DNA of 64,000 nucleotides from a virus (taxonomy: Duplodnaviria; Heunggongvirae; Uroviricota; Caudoviricetes): IMG/VR virus record IMGVR_UViG_3300042311_000626, positions 1 to 64,000 of that record; one strand, given 5' to 3'. The position numbers and the translations under genes are program-made. Under the pieces are notes generated by a model. That model saw only the letters and a list, made by a program, of their open reading frames with translations, was not told the DNA's origin and did not search any database. Of the stretch, positions 4,436-20,752 are shown piece by piece (position 1 is the stretch's first letter; the number at the start of each line of letters is the position of its first letter).

Positions 4436-4460
4436 AAATATTTGGAGGGGCAAAAGCCCC

Positions 4461-4487: not shown

Positions 4488-4496
4488 TAATAGGTT

Positions 4497-4793: not shown

Positions 4794-4927
4794 CATATGT
4801 CACAAGATCTAAACAAAGAACAAATCCAAAAAGAAATTTTAGAATTAAAATTAAAAAAACCTCTTACATCTGAGGACAAAAAACGTATTCAAAAATTACA
4901 ACAATTATTAGATAAAAAATAAAAGTT

Positions 4928-5116: not shown

Positions 5117-5117
5117 A

Positions 5118-5348
5118 ATGAAAACAGTAATTAAAATTTTAGCAGGGTTAATACTAGCATTTGGGTTAATCCAATTAACCGATTTAGGTTTGTATTTAAT
5201 GAATCGACCTGACAGTTACCTATTCAACTTAGGTATCATAGTATTAGCTATAGTGGGTGTTGCGTTTGCATTCTTAGGATTATATATGATGAAAGTATTA
5301 AAACCTGAAGAAGTAAAAGAAGAAATTAAACAAGAAAAAGAAGAATAG
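5118..5348 (+). CDS. small membrane protein
   Basis: 76 aa, 2 TM helices, charged C-terminus. Confidence 0.4.
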   Translation: MKTVIKILAGLILAFGLIQLTDLGLYLMNRPDSYLFNLGIIVLAIVGVAFAFLGLYMMKVLKPEEVKEEIKQEKEE

Positions 5349-5350
5349 TT

Positions 5351-5740
5351 ATGGTAGTGTTAATTATAATAGCAATTGTAGGTTTAGTAGTTTTAGGTAT
5401 TATTGAAACCGTCACAACATGTGAATTAGGATCTCCAATCTCTGAAAAAGACATCTCAGATTATTTAGATAGAATTGAGAAAGAAAATCTTATAGAGGGA
5501 GTAACTAAAAGATGGAATGATAAGTTTGTTTTGAATGTAAGGGGGTATAGTCATAGACATACAAGTAATCCTAATATCTATCAAACCCAATACTCACTAT
5601 TATTCCCATACCACATCAGTGATGTAGGAGTGATTCCAGTATGGAGTAAATCTTATACAAGACTTAGAACTATATTTAAAGAGAATATCGAAAACTCTTC
5701 ATATAAAACAGATAAAAGAAAAAAATTAGGACTAGATTAA
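5351..5740 (+). CDS. membrane-anchored hypothetical protein
   Basis: N-terminal TM helix; 129 aa. Confidence 0.4.
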   Translation: MVVLIIIAIVGLVVLGIIETVTTCELGSPISEKDISDYLDRIEKENLIEGVTKRWNDKFVLNVRGYSHRHTSNPNIYQTQYSLLFPYHISDVGVIPVWSKSYTRLRTIFKENIENSSYKTDKRKKLGLD

Positions 5741-5782
5741 AACAAAAACACTTAATTATAAATCAAATTTAAAAACCAAGTT

Positions 5783-6610
5783 ATGAACAGAATTTTAGTA
5801 GCATTAGGATTAATCCTAACAATTTTCGCAATTACAATGTCATGTGAAAACATCGACTCAGGAAACATCGGTATCAAAGTAAACAAGTTTGGTACAGGAC
5901 GAGGAGTAAGTGGGGTTACAGAGTGTACCGGAACAGTATTTTACAATCCGATCACAACAAACATTTATGAATTTCCAATCAACATCAGACATAAAGAGTA
6001 CACAGACGAAGGATCGTTTGTAGTAAACTCTAAAGACGGATCAGAATTTCATGTTAGCCCAATTGTCAACTATAGAATTAATCCTGACAAAGCAACACAA
6101 ATCTTTGCAAAATATAGAAAAGACTTAGATGGTATTGAGAATGGATTCTTAAAGACAGCTGTAACAGAAGCATTTAGAATTGTTACAAATAGTTATACTG
6201 CTGATCAATTAATTTCAAGTAGAGAATCTTTTGATAATAAAGTAAAAGCCACATTAAGAAAACAATTAGAACCTGAAGGATTTGTATTAGATCAGTTTAC
6301 AACTAATTTAGAATATCCAACATCATTTAAGAACGCTATTAACGCTAAAAACAATGCCGTACAAAAAGCATTAATGGCTGAAAATAGAGTTAAACAAGCA
6401 GAAGCTGAAGCTAAAATTAAAGTAGCAACCGCTGAAGGAGATGCTCAAGCGACACTTACAAGAGCGAAAGCTGAAGCTGAAGCAAATGCTTTAAAACAAA
6501 GAACATTAACACCTCTATTAATTCAACAACAATGGATTGAAAAATGGAGAGGAAATGTACCTACAACAACGTTAGGTTCAGGTACAAATGTGATGTATGG
6601 TTTAAAATAA
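5783..6610 (+). CDS. SPFH/band-7 (prohibitin/HflK-C-like) domain lipoprotein
   Basis: Signal plus lipobox (ILTIFAITMSC); SPFH-type core followed by Ala/Glu/Lys coiled-coil (AEAEAKIKVATAEGDAQATLTRAKAEAEANALKQ). Confidence 0.75.
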   Translation: MNRILVALGLILTIFAITMSCENIDSGNIGIKVNKFGTGRGVSGVTECTGTVFYNPITTNIYEFPINIRHKEYTDEGSFVVNSKDGSEFHVSPIVNYRINPDKATQIFAKYRKDLDGIENGFLKTAVTEAFRIVTNSYTADQLISSRESFDNKVKATLRKQLEPEGFVLDQFTTNLEYPTSFKNAINAKNNAVQKALMAENRVKQAEAEAKIKVATAEGDAQATLTRAKAEAEANALKQRTLTPLLIQQQWIEKWRGNVPTTTLGSGTNVMYGLK

Positions 6611-6635
6611 AAAATAATAAAAAACATTTGATTAA

Positions 6636-6661
6636 AGGCTTGCTAACGCGAGCCTTTTTTC
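6636..6661 (+). terminator. rho-independent terminator
   Basis: aggcttgctaacgcgagcc hairpin plus T6. Confidence 0.5.
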
Positions 6662-6687
6662 GTATCTTTATAGCATAGTTTAAAAAA
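6659..6687 (+). promoter_or_regulatory. early promoter motif TTCGTATCTTTATAGCATAGTTTAAAAAA
   Basis: Abuts T-run of terminator 6636-6661; 9 nt before ATG 6696. Confidence 0.5.
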
Positions 6688-6695
6688 TAAAGGTT

Positions 6696-7079
6696 ATGGA
6701 TAAACACACATTACTACAGAAGATCAAATCAGGTAATTACAATCAGCAACAGCTACTAAGTTGGGTAGGATGCTTACCAGGGACTTCAGCAAGTAGAAAG
6801 CCTAAGTTTACTAAAGTAGGAGACATTTATATGCATCCTATATTTCAACATCCATATCTTATCTTGGATAAAAGAGATGGATATTACATCTGCGGATTGA
6901 TTACAAGTGAGAGTAGCTGTCCTGAGATATTAGAAGCATGCAGATCCAGGTTCATGGAAGGGTATATTACAAAGACATTATTTACAGCAAGTGAAATCTC
7001 AGGTAGTTTTATAAACAACTACGACAATACAAGACACTTGAAGAAAGTATTAGTTAAATTAAGAGAAACATTAAAATAG
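6696..7079 (+). CDS. MazF/PemK-like (CcdB/MazF-fold) endoribonuclease-toxin-like protein
   Basis: VGDIYMHPIFQHPYLILD...YICGLITSES parallels PemK/MazF GDIWxVxxxP...RPxLVL...xVxPxTS. Confidence 0.4.
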   Translation: MDKHTLLQKIKSGNYNQQQLLSWVGCLPGTSASRKPKFTKVGDIYMHPIFQHPYLILDKRDGYYICGLITSESSCPEILEACRSRFMEGYITKTLFTASEISGSFINNYDNTRHLKKVLVKLRETLK

Positions 7080-7084
7080 AAGTT

Positions 7085-7318
7085 ATGATAGAGAGAATAG
7101 CAACAGCAATTACAGCCATTATTTTTTTAGGATCTTTAGTAGTAGGGCTTATAACAAGTACTATAGATCTAATCTCAGTAGCTCTTACAGGAAATAGTTT
7201 AACAGGAATACCTATAGAGTTCTTTTTACTTTTAATCGTATGTACACCTCCAATAGCATTAATTACAATCTATTCAGGAGTAGTATTAGATAAAATATTT
7301 AACTTAGAAAATAAATAA
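7085..7318 (+). CDS. small membrane protein
   Basis: 77 aa, 2 TM helices; immediately after the MazF-like gene. Confidence 0.4.
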   Translation: MIERIATAITAIIFLGSLVVGLITSTIDLISVALTGNSLTGIPIEFFLLLIVCTPPIALITIYSGVVLDKIFNLENK

Positions 7319-7321
7319 ATT

Positions 7322-8056
7322 ATGCCAAAAATATTTAAAGTAGGAGGATGCGTCAGAGATGGACTCCTAGGAGTAAAAACAAAAGATATCGACTTCACAT
7401 TTGTATTAGATGATCTAAACAAGACAGTTGAAGAAGGATTCAAAGAGATGGAGCAATGGATGATAGATCAAGGATTTACAATCTTCCTATCCGTTCCAGA
7501 GATGTTTACAATCAGAGCTAAATTTCCAAGTGATCATAAATTTGCTAAATTGGATGCAGACTTTGTAATGGCTAGAAAGGAAGTTAGTTATATTGAAGGA
7601 ACAAGACGTCCAATACTAGAATTAGGAACATTGGGAGATGATTTAGTTCGTAGAGACTTTACAGTCAATGCTATGGCTGAAGATGAGGATGGTAATTTAA
7701 TTGATTTGTTTGACGGTATATGGGCTTTAGAAAGTAAGATGCTTCTCACACCTCTTGAACCAACACAAACGTTTCTAGATGATCCTTTAAGAATGATAAG
7801 AGCACTTAGATTTTCAATCACTAAAGGATTTACAATAGCACCTAAGGTTTGGGCAGCGATGTTTATTCCGACTCTAATTGATAAACTACAACAAGTAGTA
7901 AGTGGTGAGAGAATAAGAGAAGAAATTATAAAGATGATGAAAGTAGATACTGTAGCAACTCTACGATTATTAGCTGAAATTGATAAAATAGAACCTAAAT
8001 TCCTAGAAGCTGTATTTAGTGACGGAATGTGGTTAAAACCAACATTTGAACAATAA
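7322..8056 (+). CDS. CCA tRNA nucleotidyltransferase / poly(A) polymerase family protein (head domain, 244 aa)
   Basis: VGGCVRDGLLGVKTKDIDFTF (GGxVRD...DxD) and RRDFTVNAMA signature motifs. Confidence 0.75.
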   Translation: MPKIFKVGGCVRDGLLGVKTKDIDFTFVLDDLNKTVEEGFKEMEQWMIDQGFTIFLSVPEMFTIRAKFPSDHKFAKLDADFVMARKEVSYIEGTRRPILELGTLGDDLVRRDFTVNAMAEDEDGNLIDLFDGIWALESKMLLTPLEPTQTFLDDPLRMIRALRFSITKGFTIAPKVWAAMFIPTLIDKLQQVVSGERIREEIIKMMKVDTVATLRLLAEIDKIEPKFLEAVFSDGMWLKPTFEQ

Positions 8057-8663
8057 AGTTATGATAAATAATATAGAATTGATTAAGCCATTGCTTAATT
8101 TTGAAAATGAAGGTGACTTTTACATGTTATACGTTTTAAAACGTAAAAAAGATCAACCTGAAGGTGAAAGAGATAATCATCAATCAGTAAGAACACTTCG
8201 TTCATATTGTATCAATTCAATTGAACAATTAGAAAAGAAGTATGACGAGATACAATTGTTATGTGAGACATTTAAAGCAAGAGCTTATATTCACGTTCAA
8301 AAACAAAACCATAAAGATGTTTCTCTAAATATGATGGTTGCTTTAGCACAACGTATACAAGACGGAAACCACCAACAACAATCATTATTTGATTCAGTTG
8401 TAGGTCAATTAAAGACTTATGAAAAGAGATGGATTGTTGATATTGATACTCAAGATGTTGAAGAATTAGTTGAGGTTGCTGAATTTATCTATAATCTTAG
8501 ACCAATTGGACATAAAGTTATAACTACAATTCCAACCAAAAACGGGTTTCATCTGATAACCGAACGATTTGATGTTTTATCTTTTAAAAATAGATATTCA
8601 GATATTGACATTCAAAAGAAAAATCCAACACTACTTTATTTACCAAATAGTTTGGATGATTAA
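8046..8663 (+). CDS. hypothetical protein (205 aa)
   Basis: ORF between nucleotidyltransferase and ligase. Confidence 0.45.
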   Translation: MNNKVMINNIELIKPLLNFENEGDFYMLYVLKRKKDQPEGERDNHQSVRTLRSYCINSIEQLEKKYDEIQLLCETFKARAYIHVQKQNHKDVSLNMMVALAQRIQDGNHQQQSLFDSVVGQLKTYEKRWIVDIDTQDVEELVEVAEFIYNLRPIGHKVITTIPTKNGFHLITERFDVLSFKNRYSDIDIQKKNPTLLYLPNSLDD

Positions 8664-8670
8664 ATTACCA

Positions 8671-8697
8671 TTCGTAATTTTATAGCATAATTTAAAA
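8671..8697 (+). promoter_or_regulatory. early promoter motif TTCGTAATTTTATAGCATAATTTAAAA
   Basis: Consensus copy upstream of ligase gene. Confidence 0.5.
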
Positions 8698-8709
8698 CAA
8701 ATAAAAGTT

Positions 8710-9819
8710 ATGACATTACCAATTTTGTACAAACGTTCAAACAGTAAAGAACACATCAATCAATGGCAAATTGAGGTTGAAGGAAACAAATTCAGAACAA
8801 CTACAGGATTTGTAAATATGAAAATGTTTACAGGTGATTGGACCGAATGTACTCCTAAAAATGTAGGTAAAAAGAACGCTACAACAGCGGAAGAACAAGC
8901 ATTGTTCGAAGCACAAGCACTATGGCAAAAACGTAAAGATTTAGGTTATTGGGAAGACATAAATGATTGTGATAAGAAAGTATTCTTTCAACCTATGTTA
9001 GCTCAAGACTATGACAAACGTAAGGATAAAGTACAGTTCCCAATTTTATCACAACCAAAACTAGACGGAGTAAGATGTATAGTTAAATCAGATGGTATGT
9101 GGACACGAACAGGAAAGGAAATTATATCTGCTCCTCACATATTTGAAGGACTAAAACACGTATTTGAAACACAACCTGATTTAGTATTGGATGGTGAATT
9201 ATATACTTCAAATACAGAAGTAGATTTCAACACAATCATATCATGTGTTAGAAAAACAAAACCAACACAAGCCGATTTAGATTTATCTACTCGATATATT
9301 GAGTATTGGATGTATGACATGTATGAAGGTGAAGATTTAATATATGCTTCAAGACGAGGTAAATTGTTAAGTTTATTTCTTACATATGATATATCAATTC
9401 TTTATTATAAAATTGTTGAAACAACTAATGTAATTTCATTTGAACAGATTAATCTAAAATTACAAGAATATATTGAACAAGGTTTTGAAGGTCAAATGTT
9501 AAGAGATCCAAACACACCTTATGAAAATAAACGTTCAAATGGTTTATTAAAACATAAAACATTCTTTGATGAAGAGTTTACAATAATAGATTATTCCGAA
9601 GGTATAGGTAAATTTAGTGGTAAAGTAGCAACATTAAAAGTAAATGTTAGTGGTGTAGAAGTGGATTGTACCATAAATGGAACGATGGAGTATTTAGAAG
9701 AATTATTTCAAATCAAAGACACATTAATTGGTAAACAAGCAACAGTTAAGTATTTTGAAAAAACGGTAGATGGTTCATTAAGATTTCCAAAAGTAATAGC
9801 GATACGAGATTATGAATAA
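8710..9819 (+). CDS. ATP-dependent DNA ligase with ~100-aa N-terminal extension
   Basis: Motif I KLDGVR, motif III LDGELY, motif IV EGQMLR, motif V LLKHK. Confidence 0.8.
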   Translation: MTLPILYKRSNSKEHINQWQIEVEGNKFRTTTGFVNMKMFTGDWTECTPKNVGKKNATTAEEQALFEAQALWQKRKDLGYWEDINDCDKKVFFQPMLAQDYDKRKDKVQFPILSQPKLDGVRCIVKSDGMWTRTGKEIISAPHIFEGLKHVFETQPDLVLDGELYTSNTEVDFNTIISCVRKTKPTQADLDLSTRYIEYWMYDMYEGEDLIYASRRGKLLSLFLTYDISILYYKIVETTNVISFEQINLKLQEYIEQGFEGQMLRDPNTPYENKRSNGLLKHKTFFDEEFTIIDYSEGIGKFSGKVATLKVNVSGVEVDCTINGTMEYLEELFQIKDTLIGKQATVKYFEKTVDGSLRFPKVIAIRDYE

Positions 9820-9879
9820 AAAATTACAAGAAAGCTTGCGGTACACAACATCAATACAAACATACGTATATACAAGAAT

Positions 9880-10068
9880 ATGAAACGATTATTATACAAC
9901 ATAGCATTTTGGATTGGTTATACAATCGTAATTGAAGATACTCTAATGAGTTGGGAAAAGTGGGAGATAAAAAAATACACTCACATTGTGGTATACAAGT
10001 ATTATGGTAGATTTAAACATGACAATAGCATTAAGTTAAGACGTGTGTGGGCGCTTAAAATAAGATAA
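9880..10068 (+). CDS. hypothetical protein
   Basis: 62-aa ORF; CGTATATACAA motif 5 nt upstream. Confidence 0.3.
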   Translation: MKRLLYNIAFWIGYTIVIEDTLMSWEKWEIKKYTHIVVYKYYGRFKHDNSIKLRRVWALKIR

Positions 10069-10070
10069 AC

Positions 10071-10301
10071 ATGACAGTAGCAGAAGTAATAGAAAAACTA
10101 AGCACTATTGAAAATCAAGACGCCTTAGTGATGACAAGAGGATATGAAGGAGGGTATGATGATATGGATTATGATATTATAGAAACAGATATGGTTCTAA
10201 ATGTAAATTCAGAATGGTATTATGGTAAACATGAAAGAGCAGAAAATGTATATCATGAAGATAGGGAAAAATATGAAATAGTAAAAGCAATTATACTTTA
10301 G
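10071..10301 (+). CDS. hypothetical protein
   Basis: 76-aa acidic ORF. Confidence 0.35.
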   Translation: MTVAEVIEKLSTIENQDALVMTRGYEGGYDDMDYDIIETDMVLNVNSEWYYGKHERAENVYHEDREKYEIVKAIIL

Positions 10302-10321
10302 GTTGGCTTATAGGAATTGTA

Positions 10322-10348
10322 TTCGTAATTTTATAGCATAATTTAAAA
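10322..10348 (+). promoter_or_regulatory. early promoter motif (consensus copy)
   Basis: Identical 27-mer to 8671-8697. Confidence 0.5.
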
Positions 10349-10351
10349 CAA

Positions 10352-10567
10352 ATGGTTATGACAAATTTAGACATTATTGAAAAATTTATTCAAAGTGAAA
10401 TTGATAAGAACAATTCATCTAATGAATATATTTTAGCATTAAATGAGTGTGCAACATTAGAGGACTTAATTTATGAAGTTGATATGTGGAAATCACCAAT
10501 TATAATTGAAAAATATGGAAATGTGGAAAATTATATTTTGATGAGTTTAGATAATTTAAAACAATAA
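10352..10567 (+). CDS. hypothetical protein
   Basis: ORF after early motif; second ATG at 10358 fits the conserved ggttATG context better. Confidence 0.35.
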   Translation: MVMTNLDIIEKFIQSEIDKNNSSNEYILALNECATLEDLIYEVDMWKSPIIIEKYGNVENYILMSLDNLKQ

Positions 10568-10572
10568 AGGTT

Positions 10573-10767
10573 ATGGAAGTAAAAATTAACATCCCAGAAG
10601 GAATCATTCGCACATGTACAAAATGTGGTTGGAATGAAGAACAAACAAGAAAGGTATTTGTTGAGTACTTACAAGAGGTTACTAATCATGTATACAATCA
10701 CTTTGAAATAGGTTTTGATAATTGGATAAATGACGAAGATACTCAGGAATTTTTAGATAACTTATAA
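10573..10767 (+). CDS. hypothetical protein
   Basis: 64-aa ORF. Confidence 0.35.
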   Translation: MEVKINIPEGIIRTCTKCGWNEEQTRKVFVEYLQEVTNHVYNHFEIGFDNWINDEDTQEFLDNL

Positions 10768-10772
10768 AACAA

Positions 10773-10994
10773 ATGGTTATGAGAACAAAACGATCAGAAT
10801 TAGTAGAAGGTAAAAAATATTTCATGAATGGTGAAAGAGACGTCATAGGAGTATTTAAAGGTAGAGATGAAGATTTAAACTCAATTTTCTTTGATTGTGG
10901 TGAACAAAACAAATATTTCACTTCATTATATAGAGAAGGTCTTGTAATGTTTTGGAGTGATGATGATTATGAAGGGTTTGTAGAAGTAAAATAA
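10773..10994 (+). CDS. hypothetical protein
   Basis: 73-aa ORF; alternative start 10779. Confidence 0.35.
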   Translation: MVMRTKRSELVEGKKYFMNGERDVIGVFKGRDEDLNSIFFDCGEQNKYFTSLYREGLVMFWSDDDYEGFVEVK

Positions 10995-10999
10995 GCGTT

Positions 11000-11224
11000 A
11001 TGAAAAGATTAGTCACAATACAAGATGGAGTAATAGGAGGGGTGGAGAAAGAGCTTATAGAGAAATTGCTCCCTCAATTAATAGGATCATTTAGACAACG
11101 TAAAGAATACTTTGAATACTATTTTAATGAAACGGAAGTTGAAATCACCTTAGATGATATTGAGCGTTTATCTAAAGAATTTACTATAGAAATAAATTGG
11201 AGTGAATTAGAAATTTTCATTTAA
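11000..11224 (+). CDS. hypothetical protein
   Basis: 74-aa ORF. Confidence 0.35.
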   Translation: MKRLVTIQDGVIGGVEKELIEKLLPQLIGSFRQRKEYFEYYFNETEVEITLDDIERLSKEFTIEINWSELEIFI

Positions 11225-11235
11225 TAATAAAAGTT

Positions 11236-11601
11236 ATGGCAACACCAAGTAGAATAGGAATCGAGAACGAAAACGGATCAATAACATCAATTTACTGTCA
11301 TTGGGATGGTTATACAGAAGGTGTAGGTGCAATGTTAAAAGAGCATTATTTGAGCACTCAAAAAGTAAGAATGCTACTTAATTTAGGTGATATTAGTATT
11401 TTAGGAGAACAGGTAGCAACTATGGATGAACATACTTTTGATAATCCAAAGCAAGGTGTAACAGTGGCTTATCATAGAGACAGAGGTGAGGAAAAGAATG
11501 AGGCGAGAACGGATGTTTCAATTGAACAATTTAAAAATCGTTTAAGTGATTGTTATGGTTATGTTTATACTAAAGGTGGAAATTGGTTAACAGTAAGATA
11601 A
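11236..11601 (+). CDS. hypothetical protein
   Basis: 121-aa ORF. Confidence 0.4.
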   Translation: MATPSRIGIENENGSITSIYCHWDGYTEGVGAMLKEHYLSTQKVRMLLNLGDISILGEQVATMDEHTFDNPKQGVTVAYHRDRGEEKNEARTDVSIEQFKNRLSDCYGYVYTKGGNWLTVR

Positions 11602-11606
11602 GTGAT

Positions 11607-11894
11607 ATGAAACAGACAGCAGTAGAATGGTTAGCGAATGAGCTATATGAAAAATTTGAAATGAAAGGTGATGGTGCTTTGTTTAATGACTTGTTAAATC
11701 AAGCCAATAAAATGTTTGAGCAACAGATTATTGATGCCTTTGATAATGGTGTAGAAGATGATGGAATTATTGATAATGCAGAACAATACTATAATGAAAC
11801 ATTTGGTAAATCAACTCCGTGGTATGATGAAGATAAGACAACAGAAAGAATGAATATAATAGGACAAAATGGAAATAATGGTGAACACTATTAA
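11607..11894 (+). CDS. hypothetical acidic protein
   Basis: ORF in track from a TTG at 11583; first ATG at 11607 (MKQTAVEW...). Confidence 0.35.
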   Translation: MKQTAVEWLANELYEKFEMKGDGALFNDLLNQANKMFEQQIIDAFDNGVEDDGIIDNAEQYYNETFGKSTPWYDEDKTTERMNIIGQNGNNGEHY

Positions 11895-11928
11895 ATCCAA
11901 AGCACCAAATACATAATCCAGCTAAAAT

Positions 11929-11986
11929 AAAACGTACGACGGAAGAAACGAAACGTACGACGGAATAGAATAATAACGTACGGGCG
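11929..11986 (+). repeat. direct repeats AAACGTACGACGG (x2) plus AACGTACGGGCG
   Basis: Exact 13-mer at 11929 and 11951; related copy 11975; further copies at 12732 (direct) and 13243 (inverted). Confidence 0.7.
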
Positions 11987-12347
11987 AAAGGGCGATTACT
12001 AAATAATAGGAGCTGGGTGCTTCGGGTATGAAATATCGCATTTAAACGCATTGTTTTTTTACCACGGCATTATGTGATTATGGGGAGGTAATGCAAAATT
12101 ACGCGTTTTTTTGCGCAAATAATCGCGATTTTTTTGTTGCTTAAAGGAATAGGTGAGGATGGAAAACAAGGGTTAAGGGTGGAAAACATTACAATATTTT
12201 TTTTGTTGCTTAAAGTTTTTGTACTTAACATGTGGAACGAATGGAGATAATGTGTGATGGAGTTTTGTGACAAGGGAAAAGGTCCCGCCATGCCACGCCC
12301 CGTTTCTCCACTTTCGAAACGTATATACAAAACATAACATAACTACT

Positions 12348-12545
12348 ATGCTATATTACATAAACATTTACGTATTCATTGGCGCCATTGTGTCCGTATT
12401 GGCCATATTAATGAATAATTATTTTGTTAAGTACGACGACGGGACTCCTTTAACCAATAAAGACGTCGTTATAATAATTTTTTTCTGGCCAATATTTCTT
12501 TTGTTCTTGTTTTATTACTTTTTTGTTAAAGATTGGGATAACTAA
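12348..12545 (+). CDS. small membrane protein (65 aa)
   Basis: ATG inside track ORF 12267..12545 where AT-rich codon usage resumes; 2 TM helices. Confidence 0.3.
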   Translation: MLYYINIYVFIGAIVSVLAILMNNYFVKYDDGTPLTNKDVVIIIFFWPIFLLFLFYYFFVKDWDN

Positions 12546-12586
12546 GAATTTTTTTGTACATTCATATAAATAAAAAATTTAAAATT

Positions 12587-12733
12587 ATGATTGTACCTTT
12601 TTGGATTCAAGGCTTAGCATTTGGTGTTTATTATGTTCCGGACGACGACGGAGTAGATTACGACGACGAGACACATATGGTCCAATTGGCGTTAGGTTTT
12701 TTTGGTATATCGTTTATGTGGTGGAACGACTAA
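12587..12733 (+). CDS. small membrane protein (48 aa) with acidic loop
   Basis: MIVPFWIQGLAFGVYYVPDDDGVDYDDE...FFGISFMWW; below track cutoff. Confidence 0.25.
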   Translation: MIVPFWIQGLAFGVYYVPDDDGVDYDDETHMVQLALGFFGISFMWWND

Positions 12734-12852
12734 AACGTACGACGACGAAAGTTTTTTGTCTTTTTTTGCGATAATATTTGGTTGCGTGGTTTTTTGTTAT
12801 TAATTTTATGCCAGAGTTAAAAACATAAACATTAACATTAAAAATCAAGGTT

Positions 12853-13185
12853 ATGACGCGTACAGAAGTATTAGCAAAAGTAAAAGAGTTAGGTATCAAA
12901 ACAGAAAGACCAGCTCATCAGATGAAAACAGAAGCATTAGTTGCTTTAATTCACAAAACAGTTGTGATTGAAGATCACAAAGCACGTGGACGTAAAATCA
13001 ATCCAACGAGCGCTAGACAACAAAGATTAGCTACCCGAGCTATGTTGTTAGAAAATGGTCCAATTCAAAAAGGACGTAAACCGAACTTAACCAGTGCCAG
13101 ACAACAAAGATTGGCTGCATGGGAAGCTAGAAAGGCTGCCGGTGAGGTAATAAAACGAGGCCGTCCAGCAATGGTGGTTGCGTAA
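12853..13185 (+). CDS. HeH/Rho-N (SAP-like) domain DNA-binding protein with tandem basic repeats
   Basis: N-terminal LAKVKELGIKT...MKTEALVALI fits the Rho-N/HeH signature; two GRKxNxTSARQQRLA repeats; strong terminator follows. Confidence 0.5.
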   Translation: MTRTEVLAKVKELGIKTERPAHQMKTEALVALIHKTVVIEDHKARGRKINPTSARQQRLATRAMLLENGPIQKGRKPNLTSARQQRLAAWEARKAAGEVIKRGRPAMVVA

Positions 13186-13207
13186 TTTAATTGTTAAACT
13201 AGGAACT

Positions 13208-13237
13208 GACCCGACAGAAATGTCGGGTCTTTTTTTT
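13208..13237 (+). terminator. rho-independent terminator
   Basis: gacccgaca-gaaa-tgtcgggtc 9-bp stem plus T8. Confidence 0.75.
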
Positions 13238-13428
13238 CCTCCGTCGTACGTTTTATTATTTGGGGACAACTATTTCTAATATCCAAGTTGGTTGTTAATT
13301 TTTTTATTCGTACCTTTATGGGGGGGTCCGTTTTTTTTTTATAAAAACGTTACAACATTTTTTGTTTATCATTTGGATATTGGTTTTTTTGTTTGTATAT
13401 TTACGACGTTAATTAAAACAATAGAGTT

Positions 13429-13680
13429 ATGAGAGTACAAATTAAATCCATCTTCGAGCAAATTGCAGAGCAAGTATTTAAAATGACTGATGCAACTAAA
13501 GCTAAAACGTTCATTACTGAATTCGTTAATGAAAAGAATATTAACGACGACGACAAAAGAACGATCCTAAACAACATAGAGAACCTTAAATCGATTGCCC
13601 AGATCCAGAAATACATCTGTAACTCACTTCTTCAGTATGAGGGGCTAGGTGTTGGTGCTAGAAAGGATCCAAATGAGTGA
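13429..13680 (+). CDS. hypothetical protein; 3' end runs into a GC-rich segment
   Basis: 83-aa ORF; last ~15 codons lie in the GC-rich island 13635-13765. Confidence 0.35.
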   Translation: MRVQIKSIFEQIAEQVFKMTDATKAKTFITEFVNEKNINDDDKRTILNNIENLKSIAQIQKYICNSLLQYEGLGVGARKDPNE

Positions 13681-13948
13681 GCTGGATCATCTGGCCCAGT
13701 GGGAGCAGTTCCTCTGGCTTCAGGGGCTCGATCCGGGGCCTGAAATTGGGAACACCATTTCGTTAGTATGTATGTCGGAAGACATTAAACATTATAATTA
13801 TGAAGACTATCCAAGTAACACTTCAAGAGCGATGGGCTGCTTCTAGGCACCAGATCCACAAGACAAAGAAAACATATACCCGTAAGGATAAACACAAAAA
13901 CAAGAGTCGTAAAGACTCTTCATTTGTCTTTGGTTACCAGAATTATGT

Positions 13949-13975
13949 GTCGTAATTTTATAGCATAGTTAAAAA
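13949..13975 (+). promoter_or_regulatory. early promoter motif
   Basis: gtCGTAATTTTATAGCATAGTTAAAAA upstream of ATG 13993. Confidence 0.45.
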
Positions 13976-13992
13976 CATTAAAAATAAAAGTT

Positions 13993-14238
13993 ATGGCTTA
14001 TAGAGAAACATTTAGAATGAATCAAAGAGATTTTGATGAAGAAAATGAAGAAACAATTAATGACATTAGAAGTTATTTAGTTTACAATTACAATCATGTA
14101 AGTTCAGACCAACTATCAGATGGTTTTATTCTGGAGTTTATGTCCAGAGATTACTTAGTAAGGTTGCCGTTTGAGAGAAAGATGGATTGCCTTTATGATC
14201 ACATTTTGGCTCAAGGTTTATGTGATGTAGAAGAATAG
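13993..14238 (+). CDS. hypothetical protein
   Basis: 81-aa ORF between early motif and terminator. Confidence 0.4.
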   Translation: MAYRETFRMNQRDFDEENEETINDIRSYLVYNYNHVSSDQLSDGFILEFMSRDYLVRLPFERKMDCLYDHILAQGLCDVEE

Positions 14239-14241
14239 ATT

Positions 14242-14262
14242 AAGCGCTTAGGCGCTTTTTTT
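14242..14262 (+). terminator. rho-independent terminator
   Basis: aagcgc-ttag-gcgctt plus T7. Confidence 0.5.
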
Positions 14263-14290
14263 GTCTTTCACTAGGATACCTAAAAAATTT

Positions 14291-14318
14291 TTCGTACCTT
14301 TATACCAAATTTAAATTA
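14291..14318 (+). promoter_or_regulatory. early promoter motif, degenerate
   Basis: TTCGTACCTTTATACCAAATTTAAATTA upstream of the GC-rich ORF. Confidence 0.4.
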
Positions 14319-14326
14319 AAAACAAA

Positions 14327-14887
14327 ATGAAAACATTAGTAATACACCCTAACGATCGATCAACTGATTTTCTTAAGCCGATCTATAACGAGCTAGACGA
14401 TGTTACTCTGGTGACTGGCAACTGGACACGTGGGGAAATAATAGAGGGCATCCAGGCACACGATCAAGTAATGATGATGGGACATGGGAGCCCAGGTGGA
14501 TTGTTTGCTATGGGGCAGTTTTGGCCTCAAGACGTCCTTAGTGCCTATATTATAGGGGCTGACATGGTTGAGGCGTTGAGCCAGAAGGACAACAACATTT
14601 TTATCTGGTGTAATGCCGATCAATTTGTTACTAGACACATGCTGAAGGGGTTTTACACTGGGATGTTTATCTCTGAGACGGGCGAGGCTGCTTATTGTGG
14701 ATTGCCTGGTACACCTCAAGACATGGTGGATGAATCGAACCACGGGTTTGTTAAAATACTTGGCGATGCACTTCAGGGCACCAGAGACACTAGTGTTCTA
14801 TTTGAGCAGACTAGCAACACATACAGCCTAATAGCCGACATTAATCCAGTAGCTAAATACAATCATAATAGACTTTATTTAAGATAG
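14327..14887 (+). CDS. hypothetical protein, compositionally foreign
   Basis: 186-aa ORF with clearly higher GC than neighbours; GHGSPGG and hydrophobic-strand-Cys (IFIWCNAD) elements. Confidence 0.5.
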   Translation: MKTLVIHPNDRSTDFLKPIYNELDDVTLVTGNWTRGEIIEGIQAHDQVMMMGHGSPGGLFAMGQFWPQDVLSAYIIGADMVEALSQKDNNIFIWCNADQFVTRHMLKGFYTGMFISETGEAAYCGLPGTPQDMVDESNHGFVKILGDALQGTRDTSVLFEQTSNTYSLIADINPVAKYNHNRLYLR

Positions 14888-14908
14888 ATTTGGTTGCCTA
14901 AAATATTA

Positions 14909-14937
14909 TTCGTACTTTTATATCAAAGTTTAACAAT
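14909..14937 (+). promoter_or_regulatory. early promoter motif, degenerate
   Basis: TTCGTACTTTTATATCAAAGTTTAACAA. Confidence 0.4.
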
Positions 14938-14952
14938 TAAAATATTCTTATT

Positions 14953-15252
14953 ATGAGTGAAAAAATTAACAGCGACTGTTTATTCCGCCTTGAGGCGAAA
15001 GGTGAAGACATTAGTGCTTCAGTTGAAGGTAAAGCTAGAGATATAGCAGAATTACTTGCTAACGCAGCTATAAATTCAGAAGAAATAAACATGGTTTTAA
15101 AATTTGCTATGTTAATGTTGGCTCAACATGAAATGAACCAAGACGAAGACGAAGACGAAGACCGAATCAGCGAAGAAAGATTCCAAGCTGGTAAAGAAGC
15201 TGCTGTTGACTTAGCTCAGGCATTATTCCCTCTTAAAATGGAGGAAGCATAA
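14953..15252 (+). CDS. acidic hypothetical protein
   Basis: 99 aa with QDEDEDEDR run; flanked by motif and terminator. Confidence 0.45.
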   Translation: MSEKINSDCLFRLEAKGEDISASVEGKARDIAELLANAAINSEEINMVLKFAMLMLAQHEMNQDEDEDEDRISEERFQAGKEAAVDLAQALFPLKMEEA

Positions 15253-15287
15253 GATTTCTCATTATTTATTGTTTTTAATTAGTGAAT

Positions 15288-15315
15288 TGACTCATCAGAA
15301 ATGGTGAGTCTTTTC
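15288..15315 (+). terminator. rho-independent terminator
   Basis: tgactcatc-agaaat-ggtgagtc plus TTTT. Confidence 0.5.
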
Positions 15316-15326
15316 TATTTATCATC

Positions 15327-15545
15327 ATGAAAAAGTTTATATTATATTTGATCACATGGGTAGCAGGCAATCTGTCTATTCCATTCTGGATGGTAGGGCA
15401 CGTCCACCTGACAACTAATGTGTATGAGGACATACATGAGATAATTGCCTCATTCGGGATGAACATTATAGTGGCCCTTGGGTTCTGGCTAGAATGGAAA
15501 AACTACGATGCGGCTACTAAGCCAAATAACGATAAAGACAATTAA
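15327..15545 (+). CDS. small membrane protein
   Basis: 72 aa, 2 TM helices. Confidence 0.4.
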   Translation: MKKFILYLITWVAGNLSIPFWMVGHVHLTTNVYEDIHEIIASFGMNIIVALGFWLEWKNYDAATKPNNDKDN

Positions 15546-15571
15546 ATAATACTTGGTTATACGGTTTATAG

Positions 15572-15598
15572 TTTGTAATTTTATAGCATAATTTAAAA
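15572..15598 (+). promoter_or_regulatory. early promoter motif
   Basis: TTTGTAATTTTATAGCATAATTTAAAA, 11 nt before ATG 15610. Confidence 0.5.
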
Positions 15599-15609
15599 CA
15601 ACAAATAAA

Positions 15610-15777
15610 ATGAGCACATTAAAATTTACAGACGGAGAAACATTTGATTTATCAGGTGAATTAAGAGCCGAAGAGCGTTATGATGGATGGTACGTGTTAG
15701 GTGAAAACCGAATGATACCTGTTAACGACGAGTTTGATGCTTTAAACACAATAGATAAACTTAACGCCCTTAAATAA
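15610..15777 (+). CDS. hypothetical protein (55 aa)
   Basis: ORF 11 nt downstream of early motif 15572-15598; below cutoff. Confidence 0.35.
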   Translation: MSTLKFTDGETFDLSGELRAEERYDGWYVLGENRMIPVNDEFDALNTIDKLNALK

Positions 15778-15778
15778 G

Positions 15779-15964
15779 ATGAATAAGTTACTACTTAGAT
15801 ATAAAAATGAAAACAACAAGCAAGTAGACGTTGTAATGGATCCCAGAGAGCTATCCCATATGGAGTTTATTAAGGGGAACAGAACGTTATATAAGGTATA
15901 TGATGCTGAAGATGAGTTTAATGTTGAATTAGAACGTCTAACTAAATTAAGTAACAGTAATTAA
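15779..15964 (+). CDS. hypothetical protein
   Basis: 61-aa ORF. Confidence 0.35.
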   Translation: MNKLLLRYKNENNKQVDVVMDPRELSHMEFIKGNRTLYKVYDAEDEFNVELERLTKLSNSN

Positions 15965-15991
15965 AAGTAGACGTGTATACGCTACTTACCG

Positions 15992-16018
15992 TTCGTAATT
16001 TTATAGCATAGTTTAACA
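15992..16018 (+). promoter_or_regulatory. early promoter motif
   Basis: TTCGTAATTTTATAGCATAGTTTAACA. Confidence 0.5.
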
Positions 16019-16034
16019 ATTAAAAACATATAAA

Positions 16035-16220
16035 ATGAAAACATTAGACATCTTAATTAAAGTATTATTAGTTACCTTAATGTTATTAAGTGTAATACGA
16101 ATGTTCTTCTACCCTAGTACATTAGAACATTTTGCAATGTGTTGGTTCTTGCTTATGGCATCTGGTGTTGGTGCATTAGCTTACTACAAACAAAGCACCA
16201 AATGGAACCTAAACAAATAA
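16035..16220 (+). CDS. small membrane protein
   Basis: 61 aa, 2 TM helices. Confidence 0.35.
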   Translation: MKTLDILIKVLLVTLMLLSVIRMFFYPSTLEHFAMCWFLLMASGVGALAYYKQSTKWNLNK

Positions 16221-16363
16221 AAGCAATGAATACGATAACACAGACGATAGAGCAAGATGGATTCAGCTGGTTCGAATATAATACAGGATCGATCACATTA
16301 ATCGAATTTTCATTGAGTGAGCTAGTAAAGCGTATAGTAGCCATTAACCCGACGCTAAATTAA
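16202..16363 (+). CDS. hypothetical protein (53 aa)
   Basis: First ATG of the hydrophilic part of track ORF 16139..16363; 19-nt overlap in a different frame. Confidence 0.3.
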   Translation: MEPKQIKAMNTITQTIEQDGFSWFEYNTGSITLIEFSLSELVKRIVAINPTLN

Positions 16364-16439
16364 GCATGTACGGTAGATACTAAACAAACAACAACAACTA
16401 ACATGAGGCGGCCAAAAGGTCGCCTTCCTTAATCTAAAT

Positions 16440-16690
16440 GCATGTGTGCGCGCGCGTGACAAAAAAAGCGGGCAGGGCTCTGGCTTCAGGCGGGTCTGGC
16501 GTGTGTGACAAAAAAGAACACTCTCCTTCAATCTATCGATCCGCTAGCGCTGCGCGCGCGGAGCGACAGCGAAGTGGGCCCACGGTAATTGCGGTCCATC
16601 GACGATGCGACAAAAACGCGCCCGAAGGCCCCGGCTTTACAACAAGACAACAAAATTCACCCCGCGCCCCCCGTATATACAAATATATTG
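16440..16690 (+). other. GC-rich non-coding island (~60% GC in a ~31% GC genome)
   Basis: GTGACAAAAAA / GCGACAAAAAC repeats, (CG)n runs, ends in CGTATATACAA; track ORFs here look spurious. Confidence 0.6.
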
Positions 16691-16835
16691 CAAAATCCAT
16701 TATAACCCATTCGATATAAAATCCAAGACCCCGAAATCTCTCTCTTTAACGATCTTTTTCCCACTTCAAAGCGTATATACGAGAGGTTGGAAACAAGAAA
16801 AAACATTCGTATATTTAGACTTAAATTAAAAAGTT

Positions 16836-16979
16836 ATGATAATATACATGGATAAAACCATTGAGTTATTAGGTAAACTAGACCCCAAGGGAACCCAGGC
16901 CTTAATCGACTCAGGTGAAGTTAAATACTTAGAAGAAAAAACTGCTTATTTAGTAATTAAAGATAAAGAAGATGAGTAA
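16836..16979 (+). CDS. hypothetical protein (47 aa)
   Basis: aaaagttATG context; stop overlaps next start. Confidence 0.25.
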   Translation: MIIYMDKTIELLGKLDPKGTQALIDSGEVKYLEEKTAYLVIKDKEDE

Positions 16980-17976
16980 AATTGAAGAATTAAAACAGCA
17001 CAATCCTTATTACGGAAAATCAGCCATCGATATAATGCATTGGCTTTTTGATAAACCCAAATACGTCGAGCTAGCCGTTTCATTGTTTAAAAACGCAGAA
17101 AACGCGCGTACTTACCATAATGATGTTATTGAGATATTAGCAGATTGGGAAATACCTCAGGAAAAAATAGATGCTCTATCTATCTACGAATTACACTTTA
17201 TATACGTTTTCTTAGATTCAGTAGGTAGAGAAAATATTACTAATCTACTTAAATTTGCCGAATATAACGAGCGAAAATTAATTGTTCGAAATGATATTTC
17301 CACGTATAAGAATTTTGATGAATTGGAGAATCAAATAAATCTAGCAGAGATAAAAATAATGGGTAAAGAATTACAATCCCAAACCCAAATCCTACATGAT
17401 ACGGATGAATGGTTGGTTTTAAAACCATTATCATTCGAAGCATCTTTAAAATATGGTGCCTCTACTAAGTGGTGTACCGCCATGAAGAATGACCCCGAGT
17501 ATTTTATTCGTTATTCTAAACGTGGAATTGTGATTTATTGTATAAATCGCTCCACGGGTGAAAAAATAGCCGCATTTAAGAATCTTAATACTGATTATGA
17601 GTATGAAACATCATTCTGGGATGCTAAAGATATTCGTGTAGATTCTATGGATACTAATCTTCCTGAACGTATTTTAATTCTTATACGTAGTGAGTTTACT
17701 AATACTAAATTAACTAATTGGGAATTATTTTCAGATGAATATAAAGCTCAGTATCTTTCAAATACAACTATGACAACAAATACATGGCATGATGAACCAA
17801 ACGTAGCACCAAATCAGGGTGGTTTAGGATTAGCCATTCGTAACGCTATTACGTATGATGAAGACATTAATGTTGAAGAATTAGTAGAAAGGCAAATGGA
17901 AGAACGAGTAGTAGCTTGTAATACTGCTCCACCCCCATTTATGGGTGACATGGTTGAACAAGCTTGGAGAGACTAA
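16972..17976 (+). CDS. hypothetical protein (334 aa)
   Basis: Long ORF first after the GC-rich island; no recognisable motif. Confidence 0.5.
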   Translation: MSKIEELKQHNPYYGKSAIDIMHWLFDKPKYVELAVSLFKNAENARTYHNDVIEILADWEIPQEKIDALSIYELHFIYVFLDSVGRENITNLLKFAEYNERKLIVRNDISTYKNFDELENQINLAEIKIMGKELQSQTQILHDTDEWLVLKPLSFEASLKYGASTKWCTAMKNDPEYFIRYSKRGIVIYCINRSTGEKIAAFKNLNTDYEYETSFWDAKDIRVDSMDTNLPERILILIRSEFTNTKLTNWELFSDEYKAQYLSNTTMTTNTWHDEPNVAPNQGGLGLAIRNAITYDEDINVEELVERQMEERVVACNTAPPPFMGDMVEQAWRD

Positions 17977-17980
17977 TAGT

Positions 17981-18454
17981 ATGGGAGAATTTAAACACAT
18001 AACATTAGACGAAGCTAAATCGGATTATTATCCTAAACCCGAAGGAGTAAATTGTTTTTACTCTGATGCTTATACTTTAACACCTGATCCTAATGATCCA
18101 ACTAATGATTATGTACATTATTGGGTAAAGAATAATAAATTTAATGCTTCCTTATCATTTAACGAAGGATACATTTATATTTTGGAGAATAAAGGTCAAC
18201 CTGGTGTGTTGAAAATTGGATATACGGATAGGACGCCACAGGAGAGAGTCCGAGAGATTAACGGGGCAACAGGTGTTATAACACCTTGGTACATAGTTAA
18301 CGCATTCGCATGTAGAGCGCCTTTACAAATTGAATCTTTGATACATAAGAAACTTAAACCATTTCATGTTAATAAAGAAGGATTTGCTGTAACTATACCC
18401 TATGCTGAGGAAACAATTGCTGGTGTTATTTCCGATAATAATGCAAGTATTTAG
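17981..18454 (+). CDS. T5orf172/MUG113-type GIY-YIG-superfamily domain protein
   Basis: GYIYILENKGQPGVLKIGYTDRTPQERVREIN matches the T5orf172 core (YxYxL...KIGxT...R); ATG at 17981 preferred over track start 17945. Confidence 0.5.
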   Translation: MGEFKHITLDEAKSDYYPKPEGVNCFYSDAYTLTPDPNDPTNDYVHYWVKNNKFNASLSFNEGYIYILENKGQPGVLKIGYTDRTPQERVREINGATGVITPWYIVNAFACRAPLQIESLIHKKLKPFHVNKEGFAVTIPYAEETIAGVISDNNASI

Positions 18455-18494
18455 TAATACTAATATATTTATACCTAAATTAATACAACCACAC

Positions 18495-18758
18495 ATGGCT
18501 GAATATTTATTACAAGACAAAGACAAAGCAGCATTTATTAATAAAATGAATAAAGTATTATCTCAATTACAACCAGGATTGGGTGTGGATAATACTAGTT
18601 TTGTTGATGTACCTGAAAATAAAGATGATGATAAATGCATTTTTGTAACAGGTGATCCTGTAGAGGAGAAAGTGTTAGATCAACTTATTGATCAAAAGAC
18701 TTTTAATTTTAGAGTTAAGAAAATTAGTTTAAAAGAAATATTACAATCAATAAAATAA
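18495..18758 (+). CDS. hypothetical protein
   Basis: MAEYLLQDKDK...; in-frame internal ATG of track ORF 18402..18758. Confidence 0.35.
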   Translation: MAEYLLQDKDKAAFINKMNKVLSQLQPGLGVDNTSFVDVPENKDDDKCIFVTGDPVEEKVLDQLIDQKTFNFRVKKISLKEILQSIK

Positions 18759-19731: not shown

Positions 19732-20013
19732 ATGACAACATTTGTAATTATTTTAATTAGTATCGTCCTTATTTTAGGATATATTTCTTACAATTTATTT
19801 AAAAAAGTTGAACAATTAGAAAGGATAGTAGATTCTCAAGAACAATACATATCTAAATTTTCTAATACAGTAGATTTTACTAATAAACGATTAGGAGAAA
19901 TTGATGAAAAAGGAACATTTCAATCCGATGACGAAATAGGATGGTTTTTTGAGAGTGTAAAGACATTACAGAGTGAATTAGATGATTTTAATTTGAATGG
20001 AGTTAGAAGATAA
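19732..20013 (+). CDS. membrane-anchored hypothetical protein
   Basis: N-terminal TM helix, 93 aa. Confidence 0.4.
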   Translation: MTTFVIILISIVLILGYISYNLFKKVEQLERIVDSQEQYISKFSNTVDFTNKRLGEIDEKGTFQSDDEIGWFFESVKTLQSELDDFNLNGVRR

Positions 20014-20752
20014 TGTAATAACGGTCGAGCTTACCAAGTCTGGTAAGCCCCGTAAACGTAAACCCAAAACATCTCACACATACTTTACTGAAGACACTCA
20101 GAATGCTATTGTAGAATATGTAGCATCTCAGGATCAAAAATTTAGAGATAAAGTTTATCGTGAACGTATTGAGTATGGATTTTTTAAATTGACTCAAAAC
20201 ATCATTCACACTTTTAAATTTTACTATACTGATGGTGAATCTGTTGAAGATGTACAACAAGAAGTAATTGCTTTTTTACTTGAAAAACTTAAATTATACA
20301 AACCTGCTAAAGGTAAGGCATATTCCTATTTTGGAACTATAGCTAAACGTTATTTAATTTTAAAGAATAAGAAAAACTATCAAAAACTTCAAGATAAAGG
20401 AGATTTATTAGAGATTGAAGAAGATAAAACTATACGAGAAGAAATAATAAATGACCATTATGGACAAGACTATAGTGTAAGTGAATTTATGTCTTTATAT
20501 ACTCGTTATGTAGATAAAAATCTTCATAAATTGTTTCCTAAAGAAATAGATGCTAAAACAGCAGATGCCGTAGTTGAATTATTCCGTAAATGTGAATCAT
20601 TGGATATATTTAACAAAAAAGCATTATACATCTATATTCGTGAAATGATAGACGTAGATACTCCTCAAATTACTAAAATTATTAAAAAATTAAAAGTTAT
20701 ATACATTGATTTATATAATAGATATTATGAAGATAATTACATCAATGTGTAA
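19997..20752 (+). CDS. putative late-transcription sigma factor (T4 gp55-like, sigma-70 region-2-like only)
   Basis: ESVEDVQQEVIAFLLEKLKLYKPAKGKAYSYFGTIAKRYLILKNKKN parallels T4 gp55 and sigma region 2; sits just upstream of the late module. Confidence 0.5.
   Translation: MELEDNVITVELTKSGKPRKRKPKTSHTYFTEDTQNAIVEYVASQDQKFRDKVYRERIEYGFFKLTQNIIHTFKFYYTDGESVEDVQQEVIAFLLEKLKLYKPAKGKAYSYFGTIAKRYLILKNKKNYQKLQDKGDLLEIEEDKTIREEIINDHYGQDYSVSEFMSLYTRYVDKNLHKLFPKEIDAKTADAVVELFRKCESLDIFNKKALYIYIREMIDVDTPQITKIIKKLKVIYIDLYNRYYEDNYINV

Follow-up and report, generated by a model that had tools for sequence, protein, structure and literature searches.

The 64,000-nt window analysed here (the whole stretch of DNA, positions 1 to 64,000 of the virus record IMGVR_UViG_3300042311_000626, Caudoviricetes) contains a group of short repeats of the motif AAACGTACGACGG, composed of a phased array and of single distal copies on both sides of a gene for a basic 110-aa protein. 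The repeats are real and are not a chance occurrence; they probably form a local cluster of protein-binding sites of the operator or iteron type. As to their function, operator-type local control of an early-gene control region, exerted by one sequence-specific DNA-binding protein other than the 110-aa protein, is the reading that we tentatively prefer. An earlier note on this DNA, made from the letters alone, had proposed that the repeats and a number of CG-containing palindromes bracket the 110-aa gene and resemble a centromere/partition site or an origin with its cognate binding protein; the repeats hold up, and their pairing with that protein is not supported.

When up to two mismatches were allowed, AAACGTACGACGG gave four matches in the window, all within 11930-13253: two exact copies on the plus strand (11930-11942 and 11951-11963), one copy with a single mismatch (12733-12745, plus strand) and one exact copy on the minus strand (13241-13253). 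Shuffled sequence yielded a mean of 0.29 matches, and none of 100 shuffles reached four. Coordinates given earlier were displaced by one or two bases in three places (11929 becomes 11930 and 13243 becomes 13241), and the variants AACGTACGGGCG at 11975 and AAAACGTACGACGACG at 12732 were found as described. The repeat core is the 11-mer AACGTACGACG, and the units of the array, called by Tandem Repeats Finder at 11925-11982 (period 21, 2.7 copies, score 77), are phased at 21-24 bp; at least three direct repeats of about 17-22 bp with helical phasing are thus present, in the window two exact units and one variant at 21 and 24 bp. The dispersed copies keep a perfect 11-mer and the purine tail, and the motif is found in both orientations. 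The array segment has a GC content of 41-43%, folds no better than shuffles (z -0.35), which gives it no hairpin potential, and hides no open reading frame (ORF), as it is without a start codon and its frame is not kept in the related loci L015 and L002.

The surrounding DNA is itself rich in ACGACG, 15 of the 23 copies in the window lying within 11936-13547. The local bias is compositional or acts at the DNA level, and part of this richness is regional composition. GAC makes up only 23% of Asp codons overall, and six of the eleven GACGAC (Asp-Asp) codon pairs of the window fall within 12435-13549; the small ORF48 of the locus uses GAC in six of its seven Asp codons.

The relatives compared are loci recovered from about 20 related metagenomic contigs (labelled L001, L002 and so on), among which the gene order from the ligase to a 186-aa gene is kept. 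The closest group (the window, L001/L036, L014, L017/18, L028, L030, L033 and L047; 110-aa protein identity 81-95%, counted where the contig includes the gene) has the same array with two or three units plus the variant, the form with three and the variant being that of L001, L017, L018, L028 and L030. The intermediate group (L015/16, L019 and L002/L021; 76-85%) has the array at the same place, with units drifted to AC(A/G)T(A/C)ACGACGR, e.g. ACATCACGACGA. The repeat-less group (L003-L008 and L022, 67-72%; L020, 74%, in a different neighbourhood) has no array and zero copies of the motif, and in its L003-L006 clade an 80-aa gene fills the corresponding position.

Seven close arrays with recovered sequence (the window, L001, L017, L028, L030, L033 and L047) could be compared unit by unit. 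Among them, units 1-3 are free of substitutions in the ACGTACGACG core, which has a single insertion (L047), whereas the purine-rich inter-core spacers of 10-12 nt are about 60% different between units and vary between genomes; position 12 also varies. This pattern of core against spacer appears to fit a recognised site better than neutral duplication. Between the window and L017 the array and its 34-nt leading spacer are 98-100% identical, the next 50 nt 76% and the DNA of the 110-aa gene 82%. In L015, L019 and L002 the changes in the copy that precedes the gene parallel those in an array unit of that genome, and L019 has (ACG)n at this site.

The locus sits at the start of a gene-dense, early-type region rich in predicted canonical promoters and intrinsic terminators. 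Bacteroidota promoters have a TTG at -33, set at a characteristic spacing from the -7 box. The consensus of the -7 box is TAnnTTTG (PMC9723704). A regular-expression scan for promoters of this kind gave 27 plus-strand matches in the window, about 15 of which have a fixed 31-nt form, TTGG-N20-(T)CGTAnnTTTA, all within 1985-16817 and mostly upstream of plus-strand genes, many of those in 1-17 kb being so preceded. Between the end of the copy at 12733 and the TTG of the predicted promoter at 12778, that of the 110-aa gene, lie 32 nt; for the inverted copy, the distance to the TTG downstream of it, in an extra predicted promoter at 13288-13318, is 34 nt. The 31-nt box, TTGG-N20-(T)CGTAATTTTA, is often followed by TAGCATA(A/G)TTTAAAA and stands 15-45 nt upstream of many plus-strand genes, examples being those at 2676, 4442, 6640, 8652, 10303, 12778, 13288, 13373, 13930, 14890, 15553 and 16787.

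A variable gene slot precedes the array, which starts 35 nt past its stop codon. At this slot (11583-11894 in the window) and at the homologous positions of L001, L015 and L017, the four genomes have different small genes; identity among them resumes exactly at the slot stop codon, the slot gene of the window ending in ...ERMNIIGQNGNNGEHY. The terminator that had been noticed after the gene 12853-13185 is predicted to be a strong intrinsic one (13208-13229 and T8). Beyond it, the inverted copy of the motif lies in a 127-nt segment found only in the window and L001. The segment is absent in L014, L015/16 and L017/18 (121-124 of its 127 positions are gapped in L015 and L017), which keep the gene and the terminator and have the terminator T-run joined straight to the next promoter; L002/L021 and L019 have a different GC-rich insert at its position. 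The bracketing of the gene by repeats is therefore true of two genomes and not of the family. Predicted promoter boxes and terminator hairpins form cassettes, matching many places in every related locus, that are like the promoter/stem-loop (PeSL) cassettes of T4-type phages (PMC2839356, PMC4122927). They bound both the 127-nt indel and the variable slot, and the motif copies are located where such cassettes are exchanged.

Table. Features of the repeat locus and its surroundings in the window.
Feature	Position	Strand	Remarks
Conserved spacer	11895-11928	+	Starts exactly at stop codon of variable upstream gene slot; identity 100% to L017, 94% to L001
Iteron-like array	11929-11990	+	Two exact AAACGTACGACGG units with purine-rich tail, 21 bp apart; variant AACGTACGGGCG 24 bp on
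Conserved non-coding core	12041-12240		CGCG (12102), GCGC (12113), CGCG (12124) at 11-bp spacing, between T7 / AAATAAT / T7 tracts
C-rich stretch and invariant box AAACGTATATAC(A/G)A	12283-12333	+	Just upstream of ORF 12348; invariant in 10 loci
Small membrane-like ORF, 65 aa	12348-12545	+	Array-bearing clade only; weak PHROG matches
Small membrane-like ORF (ORF48), 48 aa	12587-12733	+	Kept in both clades
Single motif copy AAAACGTACGACGACGAAAG	12732-12750	+	Begins in stop codon of ORF48
Predicted promoter of 110-aa gene, canonical Bacteroidota type	12778-12808	+	TTGG-N20-TAATTTTA
110-aa basic protein	12853-13185	+	HeH/LEM-like N-terminal module, two GRKxNxxSARQQRLA repeats, C-terminal RGRP (102-105)
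Predicted intrinsic terminator	13208-13237	+	Hairpin 13208-13229 (9-bp stem, 6 GC pairs), then T8; kept in all relatives
127-nt indel	13237-13363		Carries inverted copy, extra promoter 13288-13318 and degenerate direct copy ATAAAAACGTTACAAC
Inverted exact motif copy	13241-13253	-	Makes a 17-nt perfect inverted repeat with 11927-11943
83-aa protein	13429-13680	+	Array-bearing clade only; four-helix bundle

The 110-aa protein joins an N-terminal module with a fold of helix, extended loop and helix over about 40 residues (helices 3-13 and 26-41) to two basic repeats at residues 46-60 and 74-88, encoded as GRKINPTSARQQRLA and GRKPNLTSARQQRLA by two 45-nt internal DNA repeats (12988 and 13072). The basic repeats had been recognised correctly; of the HeH/Rho-N-like assignment the fold of helix, extended loop and helix stands, but no match to Pfam Rho_N, HeH, SAP or LEM was obtained for the protein (E<=0.1) or for 46 family members (E<=1). 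A PDB profile search of the protein was empty, and a Foldseek comparison of its model with the PDB gave nothing significant. The family comprises 456 metagenomic homologues, all unnamed and belonging to no Pfam family, in which the HeH/LEM-like module is followed by two to five GR(K/P)xNxxSxRQxRL repeats. Pfam AT_hook matches nine of the 46 members weakly (best E 0.074), and the AT-hook-like elements of the 110-aa protein itself are the one exact RGRP and two GRK variants (46-48 and 74-76). The gene is kept, at 67-74% identity and with nearly invariant basic repeats, throughout the repeat-less group (L003-L008, L020, L022), a pattern that the earlier note had named beforehand as one that would refute its proposal. 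Because the gene persists in relatives without the motif, the protein does not appear to be the binder of the repeats. It is most likely a non-sequence-specific architectural protein, whose HeH/LEM-like module and AT-hook-like GR(K/P) repeats would contact AT-rich DNA.

If the repeats are operators, the recognised site would lack symmetry and span about 18-20 bp, made up of AAAACGTACGACGR and then a purine run. The two to four copies in the array, being 21-24 bp apart, would face the same side of the helix, an arrangement that would suit cooperative binding, and the single copies that precede the -33 TTG in two canonical promoters (that of the 110-aa gene and 13288) could act on these; the DNA between the array and the distal copies may form a loop. 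Several observations weigh against this. No recognisable DNA-binding domain was found in the ORFs tested within about 3 kb (Pfam, PHROG, NCBIfam), and the 83-aa protein, which was considered as the binder, gave a good AlphaFold2 model (predicted template-modelling score 0.73) of a generic four-helix bundle with no helix-turn-helix or other DNA-binding fold. The regular-expression scan gave no canonical promoter in 11895-12777, and none stands within 35 nt downstream of the array. The array is absent from the sister clade, and since that clade keeps the rest of the region, it must be dispensable for the conserved functions. The contrast of core and spacer is based on few substitutions or events among close relatives in a region where fine-scale recombination is evident, and, the region being generally rich in ACGACG and GACGAC, the signal may be partly compositional or made by slippage.

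The CG palindromes belong to a different element. ACGCGT (12101), TTTGCGCAAA (12110), ATCGCGAT (12122) and TTTCGAAA (12312) are present, as is the duplicated 17-mer TTTTTTGTTGCTTAAAG, with exactly two occurrences in the window (12130 and 12199). To call them rare in this genome is hardly informative, since that holds for any single 8-10-mer, and the three copies of ACGCGT in the window are about what its composition would lead one to expect by our own estimate. The local enrichment in CpG is real, with an observed/expected ratio of 1.57 in 11895-13430 against 0.69 window-wide, but raised CpG and G+C reach across 12-18 kb, beyond this locus, and the block that holds the palindromes is separate from the repeats.

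This non-coding stretch, 12040-12340, is kept in both clades (10 loci aligned), its conservation equalling or exceeding that of the flanking genes; 12041-12240 is 94% identical to L017 and 80% to L002. Its invariant pieces are TTTAAACGCATTG-T7, GGAG, TTGCGCAA, TTTTTTTGTTGCTTAA, AACAAG and AAACGTATATAC. ACGCGT and ATCGCGAT are not kept as palindromes; what is kept are the CG tetramers, spaced by 11 and 10 in the other clade, and TTGCGCAA, which is invariant in all 10 aligned loci. The part 12050-12150 has 34% GC and three T7/A-T tracts, the phasing of which suggests that the DNA is probably intrinsically curved, and the GC skew is strongly positive (0.3-0.58) over 11950-12250. RNAalifold on the 10 homologous non-coding regions (-13.6 kcal/mol, negligible covariation) gave no consensus RNA structure, and Rfam gave no match at gathering score over the whole window and only chance-level matches by E-value on 11800-13500. 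The block with its CG tetramers and T-tracts seems to be a separate, older and more widely conserved cis element that is not part of the repeat system.

At the 3' end of the block, the C-rich stretch and CGTATATACAA recur at 9865, 16672 and 16772. This combination of a C-rich stretch with the AAACGTATATAC/CGTATATACAA box may represent a second promoter class, and it could be read by a 251-aa phage sigma-like protein encoded at 19997-20752 (Sigma70_r2, E 1.7e-5, and a weak match to extracytoplasmic function (ECF) sigma factors). The box CGTATATAC(A/G)A occurs at 9865, 12320, 16672 and 16772, and in three of the four cases the C-rich stretch precedes it. A GC-rich island with GCGCGCG runs lies at 16438-16690 (47 CpG per kb against a background of about 14, in a 31% GC genome); it overlaps a putative 93-aa ORF, and is about 49% conserved in translation in L003/L005; its folding is not better than that of shuffles (z -0.79), and Rfam gave no match to it.

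A serious rival to operator-type control, although on balance an unlikely one, is that the repeats have no dedicated function. The array would then be a product of slippage or duplication, the dispersed copies would be recombination scars at module junctions left by PeSL-like shuffling in a hyperplastic, promoter- and terminator-rich early region, and their persistence would be due to hitch-hiking and to the local ACG/GAC-rich composition. Every copy does lie at a junction (after the variable slot, in a stop codon before a promoter cassette, at the edge of the 127-nt indel), the copy number varies, (ACG)n is found at the pre-gene site of L019, GACGAC codon pairs are locally enriched, and the array is lineage-specific; promoter and terminator cassettes are repeated many times in all relatives, and PeSL elements provide a precedent (PMC2839356). 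Identical cores with diverged spacers are, however, unexpected for a recent neutral duplication, the perfect 11-mer is kept in four places and in both orientations, and the identity to L017 of array and spacer falls off sharply in the adjacent 50 nt, from 98-100% to 76%. An iteron-type origin, in which an initiator binds the phased repeats, the T-tract/G-rich block is the site of melting or of an R-loop and control is exerted at the dispersed or inverted copies, seems somewhat less probable again. It would account for the three or four units, each asymmetric, about 20 bp in size and phased at 21-24 bp, whose cores are kept and whose spacers have diverged, for the extra inverted copy near promoters and for the adjoining conserved block with its phased T7 tracts and positive skew. 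The origins of lambda, P1 and R6K show such an iteron architecture, and relatives among large virulent phages do not necessarily share a conserved origin. Against an origin, the ORFs tested in 7.3-20.7 kb gave no match to a Rep, helicase-loader or primase family, 10531-18583 holds no DnaA box (one mismatch at most allowed), and the cumulative skew, at 1-kb resolution, has no inflection at 12 kb; the array is missing in the sister clade and is not AT-rich, and known replication genes are not adjacent. What favours local transcriptional control over an origin is the promoter geometry, the want of initiator, DnaA-box and AT-rich features, and the fact that the sister clade does without the array. 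A broader proposal, which we regard as doubtful, is that the array, the distal copies and the conserved block together make up an iteron-controlled origin, or another centre of replication or packaging control, served by an initiator without a recognisable domain, and that the 110-aa family is, separately, a new architectural class of DNA-binding protein.

Two further readings are unlikely. Sites for packaging or a genome terminus (pac/cos-like sites for terminase, or the edge of a terminal repeat) would agree with the presence of repeated sites, in both orientations, along some 1.3 kb where an early-gene cluster starts, and with the L014 contig, which terminates within the array; this is very improbable, as 42 kb separate the locus from the large terminase gene, most relatives lack the inverted copy, a contig end within a tandem repeat is expected from assembly, and the other matches at contig ends are unrelated coding repeats. 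A parS- or parC-like centromere bound by the 110-aa protein is the least credible. Phased direct repeats do lie within 1 kb of a gene for a small basic protein of DNA-binding type, but the reading is already contradicted by the phyletic pattern, the gene being kept without the repeats, and the conserved part of the protein is AT-hook-like while the motif is CG-rich. Searches of Pfam, PHROG and NCBIfam, covering the ORFs around the locus and the first 21 kb of the window (most, not all, of the small ORFs), found no ParA, ParM, TubZ or ParB family, hence no partition nucleoside triphosphatase (NTPase) or ParB, and the gene content is of the large virulent myovirus type.

Other identities of the array were tried and rejected. 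Its apparent likeness to the 3' end of the 80-aa gene of the L003-L006 clade is confined to AATAGAATAATAA; Rfam, RNAalifold and folding of the array gave no signal of an RNA element at the locus; and the spacing was found by sequence inspection to be a misfit to an ECF-sigma-type motif (AAC-N16/17-CGT). A restriction or modification target, which the earlier note had wished to see checked, does not agree with a motif limited to one 1.3-kb locus and showing no genome-wide avoidance or target pattern. The examined parts of the L001 contig (L001, L013) likewise have the motif at this locus only. Scans for the tandem motif returned, among viral sequences, the L001 contig and three unrelated GC-rich contigs with 12-nt coding repeats; among metagenomes, five true relatives and unrelated repeats; and among reference genomes, two unrelated matches and no copy in a Bacteroidota host. 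The 11-mer AACGTACGACG is also a direct repeat in unrelated GC-rich sequences (L010/L025, L011/L049 and L012/L046, at contig ends, and L023, L026, L031, L032, L041 and L045), some of these being coding repeats of 12 nt (GCAACGxxCGxC) where contigs of other phages end and others intergenic, e.g. in Streptosporangium longisporum.

The genome represented by the window has 31% GC and nearly all of its genes on the plus strand, and it encodes thymidylate synthase, tRNA nucleotidyltransferase, ATP-dependent DNA ligase, baseplate proteins, large terminase and portal protein, a content that suggests a large virulent-type myovirus. Its host is probably a member of the Bacteroidota, since the 31-nt boxes fit the -33/-7 promoter type of Bacteroidota sigma-A. 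Neither the locus nor the 110-aa protein found a match among 50,697 phage records (megablast, blastn, tblastn), and no cultured phage is similar to the locus at DNA level; only the baseplate protein at 24448-26259 leads to Flavobacterium phage immuto, being 43% identical to its counterpart there. Encoded at 298-1350, 3827-4435 and 7322-8056 are a thymidylate-synthase-family protein of 350 aa, which exceeds typical ThyA in length, a nucleotidyltransferase-like protein and the tRNA nucleotidyltransferase, a set that may point to nucleotide or DNA modification chemistry. The protein encoded at 17945-18454 has a T5orf172/MUG113 domain (GIY-YIG-related), with a homologue near the 110-aa gene in the divergent L020, and could be a homing-type nuclease adding to the mosaicism. 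Nested tandem repeats with periods of 12, 18, 36, 48, 66, 102 and 150 nt occupy 35377-37442 (gene 34410-37025 and the next gene); they are AACACC-rich, lie inside a large structural, tail-fibre-like gene, have a negative GC skew and are overlapped by a 308-aa antisense ORF.

To our knowledge, no regulatory biology has been described for this phage clade. If the repeats are operators or iterons, they could open a way to study how early genes or replication are controlled in these uncultured phages of about 165 kb, a widespread clade that apparently infects Bacteroidota. They are an ordinary kind of feature in an uncharacterised lineage, and current understanding is not overturned by them. More reusable than the repeats are the unnamed protein family and the conserved non-coding block: the block and the two promoter classes may serve annotation better than the repeats, and the abundant 110-aa family, with its HeH-like module and AT-hook-like repeats, suggests a phage nucleoid-type protein.

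Iteron arrays are established for lambda ori, P1 oriR and replicons of the R6K/pPS10 type, and the locus resembles them in its three or four asymmetric repeats of about 20 bp, some two helical turns, with a conserved core, variable spacers and extra inverted copies near a promoter; it differs in that no adjacent initiator gene and no DnaA box were found, the array is not AT-rich and it is limited to one sub-clade. Direct-repeat operators, such as AraC I1-I2/O2 with distal looping, the box arrays of PhoB and OmpR and the asymmetric operators of P1 C1, are alike in asymmetric sites, a 21-bp period and single distal copies in either orientation upstream of promoters, although no regulator of these families was detected near the phage locus. 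The parC/parS centromeres of plasmids and prophages share phased short repeats near the gene of a small DNA-binding protein, but here no NTPase partner was found, and site and protein are not co-conserved. The 110-aa protein differs from HeH, LEM, SAP and Rho-N modules in matching none of their Pfam families, and its family from the classical HMGA-type AT hook, which lacks the conserved helix SxRQxRL fused to each GR(K/P) motif. The PeSL cassettes of T4-type phages are matched by an early region dense in predicted terminators and strong-promoter cassettes, which bound indels and gene replacements between close relatives and at whose junctions the motif copies sit; the AACGTACGACG motif, in contrast, is neither a promoter nor a stem-loop and accompanies only two or three of about 15 cassettes, and the promoters of the window are of the Bacteroidota type (TTG-N20-TAnnTTTA) rather than of the sigma-70 type.

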